Of a DNA stretch of 22,159 bases, positions 1,009 to 10,977 are shown one piece after another. Both the position numbers and the translations under genes were made by a program. Position 1 is the first letter of the stretch, and each line of letters starts with the position of its first letter. Source of the stretch: a virus (taxonomy: Duplodnaviria; Heunggongvirae; Uroviricota; Caudoviricetes); the IMG/VR virus record IMGVR_UViG_2671180847_000010, positions 1-22,159 of that record. One strand, written 5' to 3'. The notes beneath the pieces were generated by a model. That model had not been told where the DNA came from, ran no database searches, and saw nothing but the letters and a program-made list of their open reading frames with translations.

Positions 1009-1083
1009 GTCCTCTTAGTTAAATGGATATAACGAGCCCCTCCTAAGGGCTAATTGCAGGTTCGATTCCTGCAGGGGACACCA
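1009..1083 (+). tRNA. argW: tRNA-Arg (anticodon CCU), prophage integration target
   Basis: 75-nt sequence gtcctcttagttaaatggatataacgagcccctcctaagggctaattgcaggttcgattcctgcaggggacacca read directly; cloverleaf-compatible, ends in CCA, anticodon loop CUCCUAA. Matches my recollection of E. coli argW. Confidence 0.93.
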
Positions 1084-2630: not shown

Positions 2631-4538
2631 CTAAGCATTAAACCCTCCGACTCTTACTTTTAACGTGGTAAGCTTAGTATTTACTGTTATTTTTAAAGTT
2701 CCCGAGCCTGCAGCAACAGAGAATAAGCGGCGACCTCCAGATGTACCACCTCCAGCAGGAGGGGTGGTATCGAGTTCGCCTGTGATCGATATTGAAATGG
2801 TACCCTCACGGTTAGCAACGAGTAGCTCTAAACATTCAGCCCAGGTGTTTTGTGCAGAAGACCAAGCATCGATAAGGATTCTCTGTGTCGTTCTGTTTGG
2901 TATTGCGATGGATTTTACTTCACCTTCATTTACCAGACCTTGAAAACGAGTTCCATAATCTATCCAGCTAATGTTATAACCTGCATTTGTTGCAGGGTCT
3001 TGAGAGGTATACCAGGTCTGGGTTCGCACTCCAGTTTGACCGATTGTCAGTAGAGGACGAGCAAACTGATCGCGGTGAATGTATGCGTTAGCCCTTATTC
3101 CATTGCTTTGCAGATCTATATCTGCTGTTCGAGGGTTAGGAAAAGTAGCTTTTCCACCAACATCAAAAACATCATAATGATTTGCAACTGCAGGAATCCA
3201 TCCGTTCCTGTCCAGATTTCTAAAGAAATCCTCGAAAGCCAGCCAGTATGATTGCTGATGACCTAAAAGGTTAGGGTGAACAGTCTGTATTTCAGGGGTC
3301 CGGTCAAATAATGCCGTTTCACCATATTTAGCAACAGCATCAAACCAGTATTTTTCCACATCGATAAGCACGCAACCCATTTCTACAGCGATTTTCCTGA
3401 TCGCATCGTTTCCTCGAAGGAAGCGGACACCTGCTTGAATATTTACCCCATTCCACTCAAACGTGACATTTGAGTTTGCGGCAGATGGTATAATGTCATT
3501 ATCAGAGACTGGGGCCGGAGAAGATGAAGGCCATATTTGAGAAATTCCAGCCGGCATGCTCCAGCTATATTCAGAAATATTCGGATGAGGTGTGGTTGTT
3601 AGCACAACATCCCCGCCGGCCTCCCTGACTAAATTAATAGCATTTCGAAGGCGCTGTTTAAATCCGTTTTCATTGAATGTTTGCCCGGCATTATATTGTG
3701 CGGTAGGAAAATCATTCATTCCATATATAAACAAAGCAATATCAGGATATATTCCTTCAGTAACAACTTCAGGCCATTGGTTAACAATAAAATTATTTAT
3801 CGTTGAACCATTAACAGATTTGTTTGTGAAGTTAATGGGATAAATACGCTGCTTATTTAACGTATCGTTCATATACTCAAAAAATTTAGCAACTGGTGCC
3901 TGTGTTGCTGGATCAGGAAGCGTAGCACCAACCCCAACAGAAGAACCAAACCCATAGAGTCGAAATAAGTTCTGATAGCCAGAAACCCCATGCCGATAAG
4001 CTGTTAATTTATTGACGAAATTTGGGAAAAGGGCCTGTGATGATCCAGACGCAGCACGAATAGAAGCCTCTACCGTTCTTCCTGTTTCAGTCGCAACTAG
4101 GCTAGCACCTTCTTTTGAAGATAATCGGCAGTTAAAATCTGATATCTCATCAATTTCTGATTGTATTGCTGCCAGTAGCTCATCTACGTAGTGACGTAAC
4201 TGGTCAGGCTCGTATTTTAGAACATTAGGAAAATAGAACTGCTGAGCACCATATGCATCATAAACAGCCATAGAATGGCCTTGCACAGTAACGAACTTGG
4301 CAATCTGCCCGTTATATACCGGATATCCAGCAGCGTTAATGATGATTGGTTGCGAAACAGGAACATGAGAGCCGTCTTCGTTCTCTACATAAACCTGAAT
4401 CTGGTTTTCTGGACTTACCGGGTCAGTGTCAATTTTACCGATATAAATTTTTCCATTGGCTACGGCTTTAAAAGAACGAGCCATAGTGAAGAGTTGCGAA
4501 GGCATGCTTACCACAACATTGGCTGTAATGTCTGTCAT
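2631..4538 (-). CDS. Tailspike protein: P22-like head-binding N-terminal domain fused to a non-P22 receptor-binding region with SGNH-hydrolase-like motifs
   Basis: N-terminal ~115 aa ([11 protein letters not shown]...[18 protein letters not shown]...[11 protein letters not shown]) matches the conserved P22 gp9 head-binding domain as I recall it. Downstream region carries ordered motifs GFGSS (aa 196-200), NGST (243-246), GMND (273-276, nt 3711-3722) and VHP (420-422), resembling SGNH blocks I, II, III and V. Confidence 0.9.
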
Positions 4539-4670
4539 TTAATTTGCTCCAGATACAAGGAATCACCGAAGCATGGCTACGGTTGGTGTTTGTTGCATAC
4601 CGAAATGGTACGATTGTTGATTTGTACAGTAGGTTTTACGATGCCATTCCACCCATTTGGTGAGGCATTG
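4539..4670. promoter_or_regulatory. Divergent intergenic region between tailspike (-) and mnt-like (+) starts; presumed promoters/operators
   Basis: 132-bp non-coding spacer between two divergently oriented start codons; GGAG-type SD upstream of each start. Specific -10/-35 elements could not be assigned confidently by eye. Confidence 0.4.
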
Positions 4671-4928
4671 ATGATGTACAGCAAATACGATGAGGCGCAG
4701 TTCCACTTGAGGCTTACGCACGAGTTGCACGCTAAGATTAAGCAACGTGCAAAAATGAATAACAGGTCTATCAATTCCGAAATTGTGGCTACGATGGAAG
4801 AATCACTCTCCAAACCATCACCTGTAAGCGGGTATCGTGATGAAGAAGAGAGGCTGGCCTCATTAATCTCGGAACGAGTAAAAGAAGTTGTGGCTGATAT
4901 CCTTAGAAAAGAAAAAACCCGCAATTAA
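4671..4928 (+). CDS. mnt: Mnt-like ribbon-helix-helix repressor (immI-type)
   Basis: 85-aa product with an RHH N-terminus (FHLRLTHELHAKIKQRA..NNRSINSEIVATMEESL) and the segment SKPSPVSGYR, closely resembling P22 Mnt as recalled. SD GAGG 5 nt upstream of ATG 4671. The track's 217-aa ORF (4275..4928) is an upstream extension that overlaps the tailspike in antisense. Confidence 0.8.
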   Translation: MMYSKYDEAQFHLRLTHELHAKIKQRAKMNNRSINSEIVATMEESLSKPSPVSGYRDEEERLASLISERVKEVVADILRKEKTRN

Positions 4929-4936
4929 GCGGGTTT
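4915..4936 (-). terminator. Rho-independent terminator closing the minus-strand antirepressor operon; mnt stop codon lies in the loop
   Basis: Stem AAACCCGC / GCGGGTTT with 6-nt loop aattaa. On the minus strand the hairpin is followed by TTTTTTC TTTTC; on the plus strand the U-tract is poor. The mnt TAA (4926-4928) is in the loop. Confidence 0.75.
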
Positions 4937-4942
4937 AGTTGG

Positions 4943-5164
4943 TTAGTTATCAAAAAGTCCGTACGTTTCTTCTTCTTCAGGTGTAAGGGGAAGAATCTCT
5001 ACTCTATCTATAGATACCTTTTCAATGTACCCATGAGGTCTACTTAAAATTAAAGCTCTCTCATGCCACAGAACTCCAAGAATGTGATACCTTCCAGCAT
5101 CTCCTTTTACCCTGGCTCTTCCTTTGATTCTTGGCGGCATAATGCCATATCTTTTCTTTGCCAT
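4943..5164 (-). CDS. Hypothetical 73-aa protein, translationally coupled to the upstream antirepressor gene
   Basis: Start ATG overlaps the stop of the upstream gene (TAATG arrangement at 5162-5166); ORF ends just before the operon terminator. No recognisable domain. Confidence 0.5.
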   Translation of the reverse strand: MAKKRYGIMPPRIKGRARVKGDAGRYHILGVLWHERALILSRPHGYIEKVSIDRVEILPLTPEEEETYGLFDN

Positions 5165-5889
5165 TATGCAACATTGCTCCCATGAATCAGGTGTTGTAGT
5201 GCTTTAACACCCTCCGCATTGTAGCGGAATGCTTCCACCTGTTTGCTTGAATGCGCAGATTTATCCAAGAAGAACTTCCCGTACTGCTCAGTTTTGAGGT
5301 TGTTTGCGTTAGCAATGCGACCAATCTTGTTTGCCGTTACTCCAAGCTGCTCTGCAACCTCCCCTGCTGAGTAGTAATGCTCTTCTATTGCTGGAAGAGG
5401 TATTGCATTAAAACCAACTATCGGGTTGATTATGCTTGCTGCCGCAGTCTGCTTTGCTTCCGGCGCAAGATTTGGCATCAAATCTAACAGATTGGTAACA
5501 GCTTCAACCGTCATTTTCAATGTTCGAGCCTGGCGATACTCAACAAGTCCACTCGACGATTTACCGCTTTTAATGTGCGCTTCTTGCATACTTTCAAGTT
5601 TGTCTACAAGTGTTCGGCGAACTGCTTTAGATTCGCGAGCAGCAACACGAAGCGCCTGCTTGATAGTCATGGAGATAACATCAATGTCAGCCCCGTTTTT
5701 CCGACCTACACTTTTTGTGTAGGTCTCGCCCTCCAATTCATCCTCAATTTTCTCGATGAATTTGTTGTTACGTACTGATGGCTCTCCACATAACTTGCGA
5801 GCTTCATTAACCATCATCAGAAGACTTTGGCTGTCAATGGTTTTATCCGTGACAACGGATCCGATGTTTGCTACATTCTTCAAAGTCAT
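5164..5889 (-). CDS. Putative phage antirepressor (Ant/KilAC-like C-terminal region)
   Basis: 241 aa from ATG 5889 with SD AAGGAA upstream (track ORF begins further upstream at 5940). C-terminal segment YSAGEVAEQLGVTANKIGRIANANNLK... resembles KilAC/ANT antirepressor domains; domain call is from memory and needs a profile search. Confidence 0.7.
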   Translation of the reverse strand: MTLKNVANIGSVVTDKTIDSQSLLMMVNEARKLCGEPSVRNNKFIEKIEDELEGETYTKSVGRKNGADIDVISMTIKQALRVAARESKAVRRTLVDKLESMQEAHIKSGKSSSGLVEYRQARTLKMTVEAVTNLLDLMPNLAPEAKQTAAASIINPIVGFNAIPLPAIEEHYYSAGEVAEQLGVTANKIGRIANANNLKTEQYGKFFLDKSAHSSKQVEAFRYNAEGVKALQHLIHGSNVA

Positions 5890-5977
5890 TAGGCATTCCT
5901 TATGTGGTAGTAAGGGTGTGACATAGGCCGCCAGCAGCACACTGGCGGTTTTCTTTTTGCGCCGTCCGGCGCACCAA

Positions 5978-6604
5978 TCAATGAATCCATTCCTCGCCGC
6001 GCAGTTTTGTCAGCATTGGCTGAGCGTTCTTTACGACAAAATTGTTGGTATCAAGATTCTTCATTTCACGAAGAAGTGATTTCTTGGTTTCTTCTGACAT
6101 ATAGCGAGTCTCATATGCAATATCGTAAATTCTTCCTGAAAGCTCAGAACCAATTTGCTTCATTCCTGGGTAGATGTGTTTGCACATTTGTTGACTCTTC
6201 TCCATCCACAATTGTAAGTAGCAGAGATTAACCAGTTCTTCGTCAGTAAACTGTTTTGCAATCGGTGAGCATTCTGCCTGCCGATCCAAAATATCCAGCA
6301 CCCAGCGGCGGAACTCTTTGGCTACCGGAGTGCGAGCAAACATCGCGATTAGGTGGGCACCGCGTAGTGAGAAAACTCGCACTTTTTTGCGATAATTTCC
6401 TGAGGTACTCACTTCGAGTACCTGAGTCATTCCGGCGCTAAACTCATCGCTATACTTGTTATAAATCATTGTTACTGCACGGCTATTTGCATATTTAAGT
6501 GCAGATGCAATATTAGATGATGTAAACCAAACACCATGCATATCACGGGTGGGCACCAACTCAACTCCGTGGAAGTTGTAATCTGATTTTGCTACAATAT
6601 TCAT
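5978..6604 (-). CDS. Bro-N domain protein (antirepressor-like)
   Basis: Bro-N signature (..GVWFTSSNIASALKY..KKVRVFSLRGAHLIAMFARTPVAKEFRRWVLDIL..). Start placed at ATG 6604 preceded by SD AAGGAA; the track ORF starts at an upstream TTG (6709). Confidence 0.8.
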   Translation of the reverse strand: MNIVAKSDYNFHGVELVPTRDMHGVWFTSSNIASALKYANSRAVTMIYNKYSDEFSAGMTQVLEVSTSGNYRKKVRVFSLRGAHLIAMFARTPVAKEFRRWVLDILDRQAECSPIAKQFTDEELVNLCYLQLWMEKSQQMCKHIYPGMKQIGSELSGRIYDIAYETRYMSEETKKSLLREMKNLDTNNFVVKNAQPMLTKLRGEEWIH

Positions 6605-6677
6605 GTTAGTTTCCTTGCATACGGTTACTGACATAGAGGCCCGGTTTGTGTTCGCGCACTGCCGGGCTTCACTATTT

Positions 6678-6851
6678 TTATTGGATGACAACATCGCCCT
6701 TTGCCTCAAGTTTCATCAATAACTCCATTCGATAAGCTATCTCTGCCTGAATTGACCTATGGCATCTTTTTGCTGATTCGCGGATATGTGAATCAACCTT
6801 TTCTGTAAAACGAACCTGACGCGGCTTGATGGAAGATATCTTTTCAGTCAT
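6678..6851 (-). CDS. Arc-like ribbon-helix-helix protein (57 aa), first gene of the antirepressor operon; absent from the ORF track
   Basis: Hand translation of the minus strand: MTEKISSIKPRQVRFTEKVDSHIRESAKRCHRSIQAEIAYRMELLMKLEAKGDVVIQ. SD AGGAG 6 nt upstream of the ATG. RHH pattern (beta strand QVRFTEKV, then two helices) and RSIQAEIAYRME resemble P22 Arc RSVNSEIYQRVME as recalled. Below the track's apparent 60-aa cutoff. Confidence 0.6.
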   Translation of the reverse strand: MTEKISSIKPRQVRFTEKVDSHIRESAKRCHRSIQAEIAYRMELLMKLEAKGDVVIQ

Positions 6852-6950
6852 TATGCACTCCTGTTTTTGAAAAACTCATAATCTCACTTTTTGTAGTTTG
6901 ATTATTCACTCACACTCAGTATGAGTCAATGAATTTTTTATGGTGAACTA
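6852..6950. promoter_or_regulatory. Divergent control region between the antirepressor operon (-) and the CI-like repressor gene (+), with palindromic operator candidates
   Basis: 99-bp spacer between divergent start codons. Contains a 13-bp palindrome GTTTTTGAAAAAC (6863-6875) and an inverted repeat ACTCA-gta-TGAGT (6914-6926). Confidence 0.5.
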
Positions 6951-7592
6951 ATGAATTTTGACGATCAATTCCCATCAAGAGTATCTCTGGCAAGACAGTC
7001 CAGGGGTATGACGCAGGCGCAGTTGTCAAAATTAGCTGGTGTTGTTCAACGTCAAATAGCTGCATACGAGGGTGGTGAGGCTAAACCACGGCTTCGTGTA
7101 TTGCAGGCATTAGCCAACGCATTAGGCACTACGGCTGAGTGGTTAGCTCTGGGTGAAGGTCAGGGGCCTGGAACAAAAAACGTCATGCCTGACGTTCTGG
7201 TAAAGCAAATACCAATCCTCAAACTAGATGAAGTTATGCATTACCTAAACACAGGTGAACATTCATCGTCTAGATTTCATCCGGCAATATACAATGTTGG
7301 TGACTCTGCATTTGCATTGACTATTGAAGGTGAAGCTATGACTACAAGTTCAGGTATTAGCTTTCCCAGAGGATCAGTTGTCACGTTCAGCCCTCTAGTA
7401 AAAGCTAAAAGCAAAGATTATGTAATAGCATCATTGGATAAAGAGCAAATATTGAGCTTCAAGCAGGTTTACATTGGTGAAATAGAGACAAACTTAGTAT
7501 CCCTAAACCCAATGTATCCTAATATTCTTGTTAGAAATGAAGATGTTAGTATTTTGGCAACCGCAGTTTACCTTGAAATCCCGTTGCTTTGA
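6951..7592 (+). CDS. CI/LexA-like repressor: XRE-type HTH plus peptidase S24-like domain with Ala at the nucleophile position (predicted non-cleavable)
   Basis: N-terminal HTH (MTQAQLSKLAGVVQRQIAAYE). C-terminal region aligns by eye to lambda CI: DSAFALTIEGEAM vs CI DSAFWLEVEGNSM, SFKQV vs TFKKL, LNPMYP vs LNPQYP. Nucleophile position is Ala129 (codon gct at 7335-7337); Lys171 is retained; no Ala-Gly in the linker. Confidence 0.9.
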   Translation: MNFDDQFPSRVSLARQSRGMTQAQLSKLAGVVQRQIAAYEGGEAKPRLRVLQALANALGTTAEWLALGEGQGPGTKNVMPDVLVKQIPILKLDEVMHYLNTGEHSSSRFHPAIYNVGDSAFALTIEGEAMTTSSGISFPRGSVVTFSPLVKAKSKDYVIASLDKEQILSFKQVYIGEIETNLVSLNPMYPNILVRNEDVSILATAVYLEIPLL

Positions 7593-7652
7593 TATCCTTT
7601 AGGAAGCGACACATTATCATCCGGTGTTCTGCTCAAAACTAAGGAGGTTGGT

Positions 7653-8042
7653 GTGAAGCTATTTCTTGCTGCTATGTTCTTATTCATATCTTTTGGGGCT
7701 ACAGCAGAGTGCTGGGTCGTTGGAGATATGCGCGGAATAAGCTATTCAGAACGAAATAATTTCCATCCGGAAGAAGATGGTTTTAGTGGAACATTCATCA
7801 TTAAGACAAGCGGTGAAGATGCTAGCATCACATATTCTGGGACAGATGCGGGCGGCATGGCTTACAAAGTATTGTCTAAAAACTCCATCATAGGAATCGG
7901 CGCGAATGGCGAAACTCAACGCGTTATCGACTCATGGGTAATACATCCTACTGGAACAGTTTTAATGTCAAAAACCATTTCCGGTTATGGAAATATGGAT
8001 TCAACCAAAGCTTTTGTTGGAAAAGTAAAAAGAAAATGTTAA
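7653..8042 (+). CDS. Hypothetical exported protein (signal peptide), probably co-transcribed with the CI-like repressor
   Basis: GTG start 5 nt after a strong SD AAGGAGG. N-terminus MKLFLAAMFLFISFGATA-E looks like a Sec signal peptide with an A-x-A cleavage site; two Cys in the mature part. No terminator between it and the repressor gene. No recognisable domain. Confidence 0.7.
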   Translation: MKLFLAAMFLFISFGATAECWVVGDMRGISYSERNNFHPEEDGFSGTFIIKTSGEDASITYSGTDAGGMAYKVLSKNSIIGIGANGETQRVIDSWVIHPTGTVLMSKTISGYGNMDSTKAFVGKVKRKC

Positions 8043-8063
8043 TGATAGGATTATGGCCCTACA

Positions 8064-8249
8064 TCAACAGGTTCCGCGCCCCTGAGTAATTCTGTTGCGG
8101 ATTTGCTTCTTGCGGTGGTTTAAGCTGGATAGCTTGGCTTCTGCTTCTGATATTTGCGCATCTAGATCTTTAAGCTCAAGATCTGAAAGTCGCTGGTCAA
8201 GCAGGGTTTGATTCAACTCAATGTTGTTCAGGCGTTCTTCTATGGTCAT
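8064..8249 (-). CDS. Hypothetical 61-aa coiled-coil protein
   Basis: ATG preceded by a strong SD (TAAGGAG, 6-nt spacer); heptad-like Leu/Ile spacing. It lies directly after a terminator U-tract with no room for its own promoter, so expression is uncertain. Confidence 0.35.
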   Translation of the reverse strand: MTIEERLNNIELNQTLLDQRLSDLELKDLDAQISEAEAKLSSLNHRKKQIRNRITQGRGTC

Positions 8250-8265
8250 GATTTCTCCTTATAAA

Positions 8266-8287
8266 AAACCCACCTGACGGTGGGTTT
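8266..8287 (-). terminator. Rho-independent terminator after the lipoprotein gene (possibly bidirectional)
   Basis: Stem AAACCCACC / GGTGGGTTT, 4-nt loop. On the minus strand it is followed by a U run (TTTTTTAT), 9 nt after the lipoprotein TAA. On the plus strand it is followed by TTTCATTTCTT. Confidence 0.7.
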
Positions 8288-8293
8288 CATTTC

Positions 8294-8713
8294 TTAATCT
8301 TGCTTTGTAGACGGTATAAGGGATGCGTTTGCCTCTTTTGGCTTCAAGGTATACATCCCACCATTAAATGGATCAACAGCAAGCCAACCAATTAACCCAC
8401 CAAACACAAGGTTTCCACCAATATACCAACCATTAGCATTGGCTTTGATTGGCAGGGTAACTGGTTCGTACCCATCCTTCTCCATAGTGATCTGGTAGCT
8501 CTTTTTGCCAAAATAACTACCATCTGACTTGGCAAGAGTTACTCCTTGCGGGGTCTTACCTTGCGCAACAATCACGCCTGATTCGTCTTTTACCTTAAAG
8601 CTCGCACCGGAAGGATTGCTGTTCACTTGCACAAGCTGTGTTTCGTCACCAACAATAGTTGCGCACCCAGATAACATGATAGCGCCAGCAACGACGCTAA
8701 TAATCCTCTTCAT
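8294..8713 (-). CDS. Prophage lipoprotein with PEGA-like motif, insulated accessory gene
   Basis: MKRIISVVAGAIMLSG-C has a lipobox (LSGC) after a hydrophobic signal. Segment NPSGASFKVKDESGVIVAQGKTPQGVTL...KDGYEPVT resembles the PEGA motif. Start at ATG 8713 (track ORF starts 4 codons upstream at 8725). Own terminator downstream; 83-bp non-coding spacer upstream. Confidence 0.78.
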   Translation of the reverse strand: MKRIISVVAGAIMLSGCATIVGDETQLVQVNSNPSGASFKVKDESGVIVAQGKTPQGVTLAKSDGSYFGKKSYQITMEKDGYEPVTLPIKANANGWYIGGNLVFGGLIGWLAVDPFNGGMYTLKPKEANASLIPSTKQD

Positions 8714-8808
8714 ATCAATTTCCATATCTAAAAAACCGGAAACATCCTAATGACAAACCATTCAAATGTGAAGCACGAGATAAGATCAATCCATCCGTGG
8801 ACGACTAA

Positions 8809-10977
8809 TTACTCCTGTGTCATTCCGCTTAGCGATACTACAATCCCAGCCCTCGACAAACGCTGGAACTCTTCGTTTCCTAGTGCATCGCGAATTGCTT
8901 TTACGGCGGCCTTATTTGCCATAAATCTGCGTTCCGCCGCCGCTAATGCGCCATCACTTGCCCCAACCTTAACTGCCTTTGTTGCCTCTTGAACAGCCTT
9001 TTCAATAGCGTAACGACCACTTCTGGTTGCGGATAATTTCGCTATCGATCCTTTTGCTATCGCATCAATTGCTCCACCTGCAGCGCCACCAACTATTGCT
9101 CCAATAACACCTCCTCCAGAGAACCCTGCGATAGCGCCAGCGGTTGGAAAAGCGCCAGACAATACGCTCTCTAAAACTGGATGAAGGCCATTCTCAAGAG
9201 TGCTAATGGCTGGCATAGAGCGCCCTGTCTGTTCAACATATCGAAGTGGCTTTGTTGCAGCTCTTGCAAGTTCTCCGTATGAACTTGTAATCCTGCCAAG
9301 TTCTGGAGAATATCGACTAATTGCCTTCACGTTTTGTGGGGTAAGAATAGTCGCGATATGCTTAATTCCAGCCCCTTCAGACTTACCTCCGCGTACCCCT
9401 TGCGATACCGCATCTTGTAATATTGATGCAATTGCTGGCGCGCGTTCCGACTCAGGTAGGGCGCTTATTATTTTATGAAACTGACCTGTTCCACTTTTTG
9501 CTGAGCCCTGTAACGCCTTAGAGCCATTAGTTACTAACTGATCAGTTGCAAGGTCTCTACCAAACGCTGCTTCAGCCTGTTCTTGTGCTGTAAATCTTGC
9601 CTTTGACAGATCATTAGCTTTTTGCCAGTCATCAAGAAAACCGCCATTTTGAGCCATTATGCGCATATCTTCCGTTGCTGCATCACGAAGCTCAGCCATG
9701 CGCCTTGCCGTATTTGCCTCACCAGACCTTATATACTTCTGCTCTGCGTCAGCAAGTTTACTTCGCCATGCCTTCATGGCATCAAACGTGATTCCTTTTT
9801 TACCAGTTTTAGCATAAGCAGATGCGAATTGTTTCATCTCAGGAGTTAGCGGCATGCCAGCCAAAATATCACCCTGAATTGTAGCGTTCAGGTTTGACAT
9901 TCTGGCCTTTGCGTCAGGCATCGTGGAGCGGACGCTATCCCATGCGGCCTTTTCTGAATTTTTCATTTTATCAATGCTTGCCAAAACCCTCTGTTTTATG
10001 GCTGCACTTTTTTCTGATGCAGTTCCTGCTTCAGCCCCAAACTCATCCAATGCTGAGTTAAATTTCGACTCTATTTCACTGAATGCTTTGGTGTGTGCAT
10101 CCTGTGTAATTCCGGGCTTTGACGCCAGAATCCCCTCCGCCTGAGCAAGACCACGACTACCTGATCTCATGCCAGGAGTTAATGCGTTGATATCTATTCC
10201 AGCAGTATCTGCTGCTTTTGCTATTTCGTCTGACACGTTAGCTGACTGTCTGGCAATAATCTCTCTTCCTGTACCAGACTTTGCCATTTTCGAAACATCA
10301 TTAGCAGAATTCAGTGCTGCACCACCAAGAGCCTGTGAAACCCTTGGCGCAATAACGCGCCCGACACCTGAAAGAACGCCTTGAGCACCAATATTGATAC
10401 CACCGTTAATGGCAGCATTTTGTGCAAAGTCGCCCTCCTGATTTGCAGCATCAGCAAGAGAACCTGCAATCATGTTTCCTGCGGAACCGATATCTCCAGC
10501 GAGCTTTGCTGTCGCTCCAGCAGCTTTTGCCGCTGTGCCAATTGGCAGGAGATACCCACCAAATGTTTCACCGGCTTGCGCCCAACGGTCTGTCGGTCGA
10601 TCGACAGGGCGATAAACATCATCCAAAACCTTGGGGCCACCAAGCCCATGGCTGATTGCATTAATCAGACTTGCGCCACCCTGCAATACGTCAAATGGTA
10701 TGTTTACCAGACCACGACCAGCCTGTTCTGCAATTTGCCCTGCACTTTGACCACCTGTGAGCCAATCGCCAGCTTGTTGCATCAATGATGGTTCTTCTTT
10801 CTGCTGCTGATGCGGAGGGTATGCAGCATAAAACTGATCTCTTGCTTCAGCCCATTTGTCACCAGCCTTAGGGGCAACAACCTCATCAAAATATTGCGCT
10901 TGAGCCTGTGCTTTCTGTTCTTCAGTTAACGCCTGATACTGTGGAGAAGCGATAACATCTTTCCATGCTTTAGCCAT
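8809..10977 (-). CDS. DNA ejection (internal virion) protein, P22 gp16-position
   Basis: Last gene of the late operon, in the position of P22 gene 16. Start overlaps the gp20 stop (ATGA). Gly/Ala-rich hydrophobic segment near the C-terminus. Confidence 0.85.

Follow-up and report, generated by a model that had tools for sequence, protein, structure and literature searches.

How is the synthesis of an antirepressor kept in check in a P22-like prophage whose immunity region appears to carry no arc gene? The question is raised by the window analysed here, that is, the whole stretch of 22,159 nucleotides of IMG/VR record IMGVR_UViG_2671180847_000010. Its DNA forms the left arm of a P22-like prophage (Lederbergvirus, E. 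coli HS-1 / phage JEP4 type), which adjoins a tRNA gene (1009..1080) and runs from the integrase through the tailspike gene (2631..4538, minus strand), a variable region and the ejection protein genes (from 8809, minus strand) to the virion assembly genes. Positions 6500..7100 share 100% identity with E. coli HS (NC_009800), and positions 5900..7700 (1.8 kb) match Escherichia phage JEP4 at 97% identity across the 87% that aligns. The variable region between the homologues of genes 16 and 9, which is immI in P22, was named the 'ant moron' by Villafane et al. (2008; PMC2629481), who noted that arc genes were apparently missing from the ant morons of HS-1 and CUS-3, so that ant would have to be controlled differently there. 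The gene order of the HS-1 ant moron in E. coli HS matches that of the window, except that an IS3 element is present in HS.

The 57-aa gene and its neighbourhood

Our analysis centres on a small gene upstream of ant, referred to here as RHH57, and on the genes around it:

6678..6851, minus strand: RHH57, a gene for a putative divergent Arc-family ribbon-helix-helix (RHH) protein of 57 aa, assigned from its ORF, profiles and predicted fold
6858..6862, minus strand: Shine-Dalgarno sequence AGGAG of RHH57, 6 nt before its ATG
5978..6604, minus strand: ant, the antirepressor and second gene of the operon, 208 aa from the ATG at 6604, with Pfam Bro-N and P22_AR_C domains and a match to phrog_245 (Ant) at 4e-54
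5164..5889, minus strand: third gene of the operon, anti-repressor/KilA-type, 241 aa, matching phrog_1726 at 1.7e-100 and called 'KilA protein' in JEP4
4943..5164, minus strand: fourth gene of the operon, 73 aa, belonging to phrog_4977, for which no function is given
6951..7592, plus strand: gene of a CI-like repressor, divergent from RHH57, 213 aa, with Pfam HTH_3 (9e-13) and Peptidase_S24 (1e-12) domains

An ORF listing with a floor of 30 aa returned RHH57 at 6678..6851 on the minus strand as a 57-aa frame with the translation MTEKISSIKPRQVRFTEKVDSHIRESAKRCHRSIQAEIAYRMELLMKLEAKGDVVIQ, running from an ATG to a TAA stop that is included in the coordinates. This agrees with the clean frame that the initial annotation had translated by hand, and the strong Shine-Dalgarno sequence described along with it is present at the expected distance. 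The ATG is the sole possible start, as the frame is closed by a TGA 27 nt upstream of it. An ORF of this size by itself proves nothing, since such frames are common by chance: 47 ORFs of at least 30 aa overlap the 4.5 kb from 4500 to 9000. What places RHH57 above chance is its conservation, as seen in intact frames, in the ratio of nonsynonymous to synonymous differences and in a match to phrog_10182 that spans residues 1-57 of 57 (E 2.3e-37). All of the related loci fetched (about 45) keep the frame unbroken, and the AGGAG is retained in all divergent relatives compared but one (AGGAT in L002). Against 13 distinct divergent nucleotide versions, from copies in E. coli, Klebsiella, Yersinia and Pantoea, pN/pS ranges from 0.085 to 0.31 (pN 0.06-0.21), with synonymous sites near saturation among these versions (pS 0.6-0.84); the Providencia copy is likewise intact. 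These values point clearly to purifying selection on the amino-acid sequence. The gene is encoded by 36 viral contigs and 3 genomes, and a large protein collection holds 30 relatives with 79-93% identity from Salmonella, Klebsiella, Serratia, Hafnia, Atlantibacter, Enterobacter and Yersinia. RHH57 is a genuine conserved coding gene, and the conservation in related prophages on which the initial annotation had staked its reading is found throughout.

The same annotation had called the gene unlisted and most easily missed by automated annotation. The former holds only for the ORF track from which it had worked, as the gene is already in public records, namely as JEP4_15 (QOC67864.1) in the JEP4 record and as ECHS_RS25735 (WP_021518013.1) in RefSeq E. 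coli HS, each time as a 'hypothetical protein'. The latter is outdated, given that it is called in PGAP as well as GenBank records. In contrast to these calls, the 2008 comparative paper described the HS-1 ant moron as apparently without arc (PMC2629481). The locus tag ECHS_RS25735 is out of series in HS, which suggests that the gene was added at re-annotation, and such a later addition would fit the 2008 statement. A single Yersinia homologue (n=1) carries the name 'Arc family DNA-binding protein', and a literature search on the RHH57 family or on JEP4 regulation returned nothing specific. The gene was hence known before as a hypothetical protein; what is added here is its assignment as a divergent Arc.

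The position of RHH57 at the head of the antirepressor operon stands as initially proposed: the gene precedes ant by 73 nt on the same strand, no terminator was found on the sense strand within this gap, and a promoter-like site lies upstream. The layout resembles that of P22 immI in that the ant operon opens with a small RHH gene. It differs in the divergent gene, which encodes a CI-like repressor with HTH_3 and Peptidase_S24 domains, whereas P22 has the RHH protein Mnt in this place; a Mnt-like Arc-domain gene exists at the far end of the ant operon (4671..4928, plus strand). In the CI-like repressor, EGEAM aligns opposite EGNSM of lambda CI. The S24 domain thus differs from those of CI and LexA in having Ala for the catalytic Ser (GEAM), and because of this replacement RecA-stimulated, direct self-cleavage is unlikely.

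Comparison with other E. coli prophages suggests how RHH57 came to occupy this slot. About 50 E. coli genomes share the 5' end of ant and the spacer with the window (6500..6684) and diverge beyond, with an 'Arc family DNA-binding protein' encoded upstream of the divergence point. For instance, in E. coli ACN001 a canonical 57-codon Arc (MSDVLYSGRKSQSFQLRLPARMKEEIRRVAEMDGISINSAIVQRL...) precedes an identical ant 5' end and spacer and faces a divergent Mnt-type pseudogene. ACN001 becomes identical to the window from the stop codon of the 57-aa gene onwards, which marks a mosaic junction. A junction at this very point, together with the same ant in ACN001, argues that RHH57 is a positional replacement of canonical arc in a mosaic cassette.

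The arrangement itself reaches well beyond HS-1 and JEP4. An HTH-S24 repressor, a small RHH gene and Ant/KilA/Bro-N genes are laid out in this way in 16/16 distinct close loci. The pairing with an HTH-S24 gene is also found around four relatives of RHH57 with 33-43% identity and, on those of their contigs that are long enough, P22_AR_N, KilA-N or Bro-N genes come next. The HTH domain, the spacer and the RHH gene form the best-conserved block. The three-part HTH-S24/RHH/Ant module is conserved.

Relationship of RHH57 to the Arc family

Whether RHH57 is an Arc-like RHH protein, as the initial annotation had proposed from the pattern of its translation, depends on how far one looks beyond the single sequence. 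Searched alone, RHH57 scores 16.0 bits against Pfam Arc (PF03869), below the cut-off of 20.4 (E 0.011), and its nominally best Pfam match is ParD_like (PF11903) at 19.8 bits, again below the cut-off, here 23 (E 8e-4). A phmmer search of the single sequence against the PDB returned AmrZ alone (E 0.8), an NCBIfam search gave nothing useful, and there are weak matches to partition-protein phrogs and to TprA. The likeness to Arc is therefore weaker than the hand reading had implied, as the single sequence misses the Pfam Arc gathering score.

Profiles built from the family recover the relationship. With the alignment of the close family (A2, at least 81% identity), an hmmsearch against 1.84 billion representatives yielded eight more relatives, 56-97 aa long, at E-values from 4e-8 to 8e-4, and the matches include P0036 (E 7.7e-4), a protein that bears PF03869 Arc domains. 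A second alignment (A4) comprises the family and its 33-43%-identical relatives, with no canonical Arc protein among them, and as a profile against the PDB it matched AmrZ at E 5e-6. A third one (A3, 18 members), which is a family set of the A4 type with two bridging relatives added, matched AmrZ at 1.8e-9, single-chain Arc (pArc) at 1.9e-6 and Arc at 5e-4. Additionally, hhalign of A2 against a small Arc/Mnt/AmrZ alignment gave a probability of 91% (E 1e-6), Pfam Arc is matched at E<=0.1 by 13/18 members of A3, and distant members of the family bear a precomputed 'Arc (weak)' match. The comparison with RHH families by profile, proposed at the outset as a check, thus does find similarity. Matches to PPR repeats in the A4 search of the PDB were rejected as an artefact, as they are summed 13-residue 'LeLlekleqkG' matches with no single stretch passing.

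Structure prediction depended on the alignment supplied. With the shallow A2, AF2 returned one continuous helix (residues 17-50), a model that we judged uninformative for an obligate dimer and left out of the fold search. With a diverse alignment (A7), it predicted an extended segment at 11-16 (pLDDT ~90), a helix at 17-29, a turn at 30-33 (C-H-R-S) and a second helix at 34-51, with an overall pLDDT of 87, in a model that may have been steered towards an RHH-like shape by a bona fide Arc-domain protein contained in A7. The predicted topology is that of a strand-like segment followed by two helices with a short turn (beta-alpha-alpha); in a monomer model DSSP was unable to call an RHH strand. 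In a Foldseek search of the A7 model against the PDB, the first ~20 matches are all RHH proteins (Arc, AmrZ, NikA, CopG), with probabilities of 0.77-1.00, mostly above 0.85, and with weak E-values (0.05-2) of the kind expected for so small a domain. Superposition of AmrZ on the model gave an rmsd of 1.0 A over 41 columns with 33-34% identity.

The residues that the family keeps are telling in this respect. All alignments of RHH57 with Arc are ungapped and in one register, in which residue i of RHH57 corresponds to residue i-1 of Arc. Invariant in the extended family are Q12, R14 and Y40, and nearly invariant are A27, R32, I38 and R41. Q12 and R14 align to N11 and R13, residues with which Arc contacts bases in the crystal structure of its complex with the operator (1PAR). 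R32-E37-R41 align to R31-E36-R40, the buried salt-bridge triad of Arc whose residues are replaced in the 'MYL' mutant (1myl, 1b28), and both of these structures appear among the Foldseek matches of the RHH57 model. Finally, R32-S/T33 aligns to Arc R31-S32, the N-cap position of helix B for phosphate contact.

Compared with P22 Arc (PDB 1ARR/1PAR), RHH57 is alike in size (53-57 aa), in heading the ant operon, in its predicted beta-alpha-alpha topology and in the ungapped correspondence of R32-S33, E37, I38 and R41 with Arc R31-S32, E36, I37 and R40. It differs in that it is only ~21-24% identical, has Pro10 aligned to Arc Q9 and has C-H-R-S in the inter-helix turn where Arc has N-G-R-S; moreover, no Arc-type TAGA operator is seen at its locus. 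The closest solved structure, by sequence and by superposition, is Pseudomonas aeruginosa AmrZ (PDB 3QOQ), an Arc-family RHH protein that shares the H-R-S turn with RHH57, as opposed to G-R-S. AmrZ differs in that it is encoded on the chromosome, regulates globally, is 108 aa long and has an oligomerisation domain at its C-terminus, with no phage or antirepressor context. Taken together, the profiles and the predicted fold support RHH57 as a diverged RHH protein of the Arc family within the MetJ/Arc/CopG superfamily, even though its single sequence stays under the Pfam Arc cut-off.

This assignment corrects the earlier remark on HS-1 (PMC2629481), whose type of ant moron does have an arc equivalent, one that has diverged beyond the reach of simple similarity searches. 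The true difference between the HS-1 ant moron and P22 is the CI-like maintenance repressor, the arc equivalent being present in diverged form. The assignment also offers a function prediction for phrog_10182 / WP_021518013.1 and relatives, which are almost always a 'hypothetical protein' in databases. RHH57 is a divergent example of the well-known small phage regulators and brings no new kind of mechanism.

The control region and the proposed role of RHH57

If RHH57 acts as Arc does, its target should lie in the 99 bp between its gene and that of the CI-like repressor (6852..6950), where three elements were considered:

6901..6929, minus strand: candidate Pant-like sigma-70 promoter, TTGACT (6929-6924), 17-nt spacer and AATAAT (6906-6901), matching 10/12 of the consensus
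6863..6875, no strand: A/T palindrome GTTTTTGAAAAAC with 6+1+6 arms, between the promoter and the Shine-Dalgarno sequence, the candidate operator of the initial annotation
6913..6925, no strand: palindrome ACTCAGTATGAGT, a candidate operator half-site region overlapping the -35 box

The promoter-like site is not significant alone, with one found against 2.0 expected in shuffles, and most of the divergent loci compared have a site of the form TTGAC(T/A)-17-(T/A)A(T/A)(T/A)AT in the corresponding place (L006 differs). We infer that it acts as a promoter.

The palindrome at 6863-6875 exists as described, but as an operator it is unsupported. It is not unusual, as the probability of at least one such palindrome in a shuffled 99-nt spacer is 0.13 and palindromes of the GTTTTTGAAAAAC type number 23 window-wide against 21+/-5 in shuffles. 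Nor is it conserved, being absent from the L005, L029 and L006 groups, which keep the predicted DNA-reading strand KPRQVRF. Two other elements are better conserved. The first is the 7-mer ACTCATA/TATGAGT, which is present twice in opposite orientation, at 6874-6880 and at 6920-6926, with one arm inside ACTCAGTATGAGT, and which has 3 copies in 22 kb, 2 of them in the control region; the second is the block TATGAGTTTT(T), common to the window and the L005, L029 and L006 groups. An attempt to assign operators by co-variation of half-sites and reading heads failed. Both the RQVRF strand of RHH57 and QRQIAAYE, the HTH helix in the CI-like protein, are conserved across the same groups, also where the half-sites differ, and the half-sites are therefore not assignable to one protein or the other.

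The reading that we favour, with a probability of about 65%, is that RHH57 is a diverged Arc-family RHH protein, promoter-proximal in the ant operon, that acts as P22 Arc does. It would be made from the Pant-like promoter along with Ant, would dimerise via an antiparallel beta-ribbon and would bind operator DNA inside the divergent control region. Once bound, it would lower the activity of its own promoter, Pant, and probably also of the divergent one of the repressor, and antirepressor synthesis would be a brief, self-limiting burst. In the lysogen, Pant would be kept repressed by the CI-like HTH-S24 protein rather than by Mnt. Dimerisation, DNA binding, the identity of an operator and negative autoregulation, a plausible role that the initial annotation had proposed, are steps that we infer by analogy with Arc.

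The alternative that survives best gives RHH57 a role like that of Cro. Together with the CI-like HTH-S24 protein it would form a bistable second immunity switch, in which RHH57 mainly shuts off the CI-like gene and commits the cell to Ant. The local architecture lends itself to this idea, as a CI-like gene stands divergent from a small DNA-binding gene at a distance of 99 bp, as in cI-OR-cro, the pairing of the two genes persists at 33-43% identity, and conservation within the module is highest over HTH domain, spacer and RHH gene. The likeness to lambda-type cI-OR-cro and to systems with LexA-controlled antirepressors lies in the pairing of an S24 repressor with a small, divergent DNA-binding gene and in an antirepressor as output; the difference from cI-OR-cro is that the small protein here has a predicted RHH fold instead of a Cro fold. 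Since Arc, whose canonical form occupies the same slot, is known to repress Pant as well as Pmnt, one reading does not shut out the other. A Cro-like role is compatible with everything seen and overlaps with our best explanation, from which it differs in emphasis only; as the principal role of the protein we consider it unlikely.

A second alternative dispenses with DNA binding: RHH57 could modulate Ant or the CI-like repressor by protein contact, or the ORF could be kept for translational coupling or mRNA structure. The single long helix of the first AF2 model and the marginal likeness of the single sequence to Arc would suit such a role. On the other side are the signature of purifying selection on the amino acids themselves, the uniformly RHH top matches in Foldseek and, above all, the invariant residues, which fall on the base-contact and core salt-bridge positions of Arc; because of this pattern a role without DNA binding is disfavoured, and we regard it as improbable. 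It is harder still to believe that RHH57 has nothing to do with ant control and is, for example, a ParD/CopG-type antitoxin or a regulator of partition or conjugation: such a role would draw on ParD_like as the best single-sequence Pfam match and on the weak matches to partition-protein phrogs and TprA, but that ParD_like score is sub-threshold, no locus has a toxin-like neighbour, with Ant/KilA/Bro-N always downstream, and Arc and AmrZ rank first in profile and fold matches.

Building on the Arc-like reading, one may go a step further and view the triad of HTH-S24, RHH57 and Ant/KilA as a distinct, widespread 'second immunity' cassette, in which two unrelated DNA-binding folds, the CI-like HTH and the Arc-like RHH, would compete on the 99-bp region to gate the release of the antirepressor. 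The triad occurs in P22-like prophages and others from Escherichia, Salmonella, Klebsiella, Yersinia, Serratia, Hafnia, Pantoea and Providencia. The catalytic Ser of the S24 domain is kept in most versions of the triad and lost in that of E. coli HS-1/JEP4. In Gifsy phages, 186 (Tum) and N15 (AntC), antirepressor expression is controlled by LexA. Triads that keep the Ser might couple Ant release to RecA/SOS with no need for LexA, and the GEAM version of HS-1/JEP4 might be uninducible and serve as a Mnt-like lock. This wider proposal is a tentative one, on which we would not bet at even odds. Either way, the cassette is a compact, conserved set of three parts that could be used to test how prophages gate antirepressor release.

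A candidate antisense element over the ant start

In P22 immI, an antisense RNA, sar, spans the ribosome-binding site of ant. In the window, one further element lies on the opposite strand, over the gap between RHH57 and ant:

6602..6690, plus strand: candidate sar-like cis-antisense RNA or structured arc-ant spacer, with two hairpins, complementary to the ribosome-binding site and start of ant

An Rfam search for sar at these positions gave only a sub-threshold SymR-like match (E 0.09), and a terminator scan did not call the element. Its predicted fold has an MFE of -35.1 kcal/mol (z -5.1), the second hairpin is GC-rich and followed by a U-tract, and a promoter-like motif of the form TGGAA-N(15-17)-TGnTACAAT lies upstream on the plus strand. 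The two-hairpin shape recurs, with different stem sequences, in 11/12 divergent loci folded, and the remaining one (L005) retains the second hairpin only.

A candidate antisense element and a possible alternative Ant start

The spacer between the 57-aa gene, a diverged Arc-family ribbon-helix-helix (RHH) gene that heads the operon, and the antirepressor gene ant is covered on the opposite strand by a predicted structured element:

6602..6690 (+), two-hairpin element antisense to the 57-aa gene/ant spacer, spanning the ant ribosome-binding site and start

Its minimum free energy is -35.1 kcal/mol (z -5.1), and a U-tract follows the second, GC-rich hairpin. Upstream, at about 6573..6598 (+), there is a TGGAA-N(15-17)-TGnTACAAT-like motif. 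Of the 12 divergent loci that were folded, 11 share the two-hairpin architecture but differ in stem sequence; the exception, a related locus (L005), has the second hairpin only. An Rfam search with the element gave nothing above threshold; a SymR-like match scored E 0.09. The element looks like a sar-type antisense RNA of phage P22, and we consider it a candidate for one. The same spacer is also open in the frame of ant (6605..6695, -): an in-frame ATG at 6695 overlaps the 3' end of the 57-aa gene, and initiation there would lengthen Ant by 30 residues (MLSSNKNSEARQC...). The frame stays open in most relatives and also in the Arc version of E. coli ACN001; this may be a side effect of the conserved hairpin, or it may reflect an alternative Ant start.

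Mosaicism and the relationship to HS-1

Comparison with E. coli ACN001 revealed a sharp mosaic junction that coincides exactly with the stop codon of the 57-aa gene (6678..6684 in the window versus 3179..3185 in the ACN001 locus, L004). Downstream, the spacer and ant are about 99% identical, whereas upstream the ACN001 DNA is unrelated and carries a canonical Arc and an Mnt pseudogene. The Arc version occurs in about 50 E. coli genomes and the window's version in 27. The third operon gene, of KilA type (5164..5889), is intact in the window and in the closely related phage JEP4 but is split by an IS3-family element in E. coli HS (L003 1589..2736), and the window is therefore a relative of prophage HS-1 and not HS-1 itself.

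Other regulators and neighbouring genes

4671..4928 (+), Mnt-like Arc-domain gene, 85 aa (Pfam Arc, 1e-14; 'regulatory protein mnt' in the JEP4 annotation)

This gene lies at the distal end of the ant operon, convergent with it and divergent from the tailspike gene; together with the 57-aa gene, it brings the region to two RHH genes, in addition to the divergently transcribed CI-like repressor (6951..7592, +). In the latter, residues 125-129 read EGEAM where lambda CI has EGNSM, so that alanine replaces the S24 catalytic serine (lambda S149), whereas the lysine (lambda K192) is retained within SFKQ. Relatives at other loci have GESM, GNSM, GDSM or ISM at this site. Because of the serine-to-alanine replacement, the HS-1/JEP4 version is probably incapable of self-cleavage and of direct SOS induction.

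The stretch 7653..8725, which separates the ejection-protein genes from the CI-like repressor, contains small moron-like ORFs:

7653..8042 (+), 129-aa protein with a signal-peptide-like N-terminus
8064..8249 (-), 61-aa ORF, coiled-coil-like
8294..8725 (-), 143-aa ORF, lipoprotein-like

In E. coli HS, a different gene takes their place.
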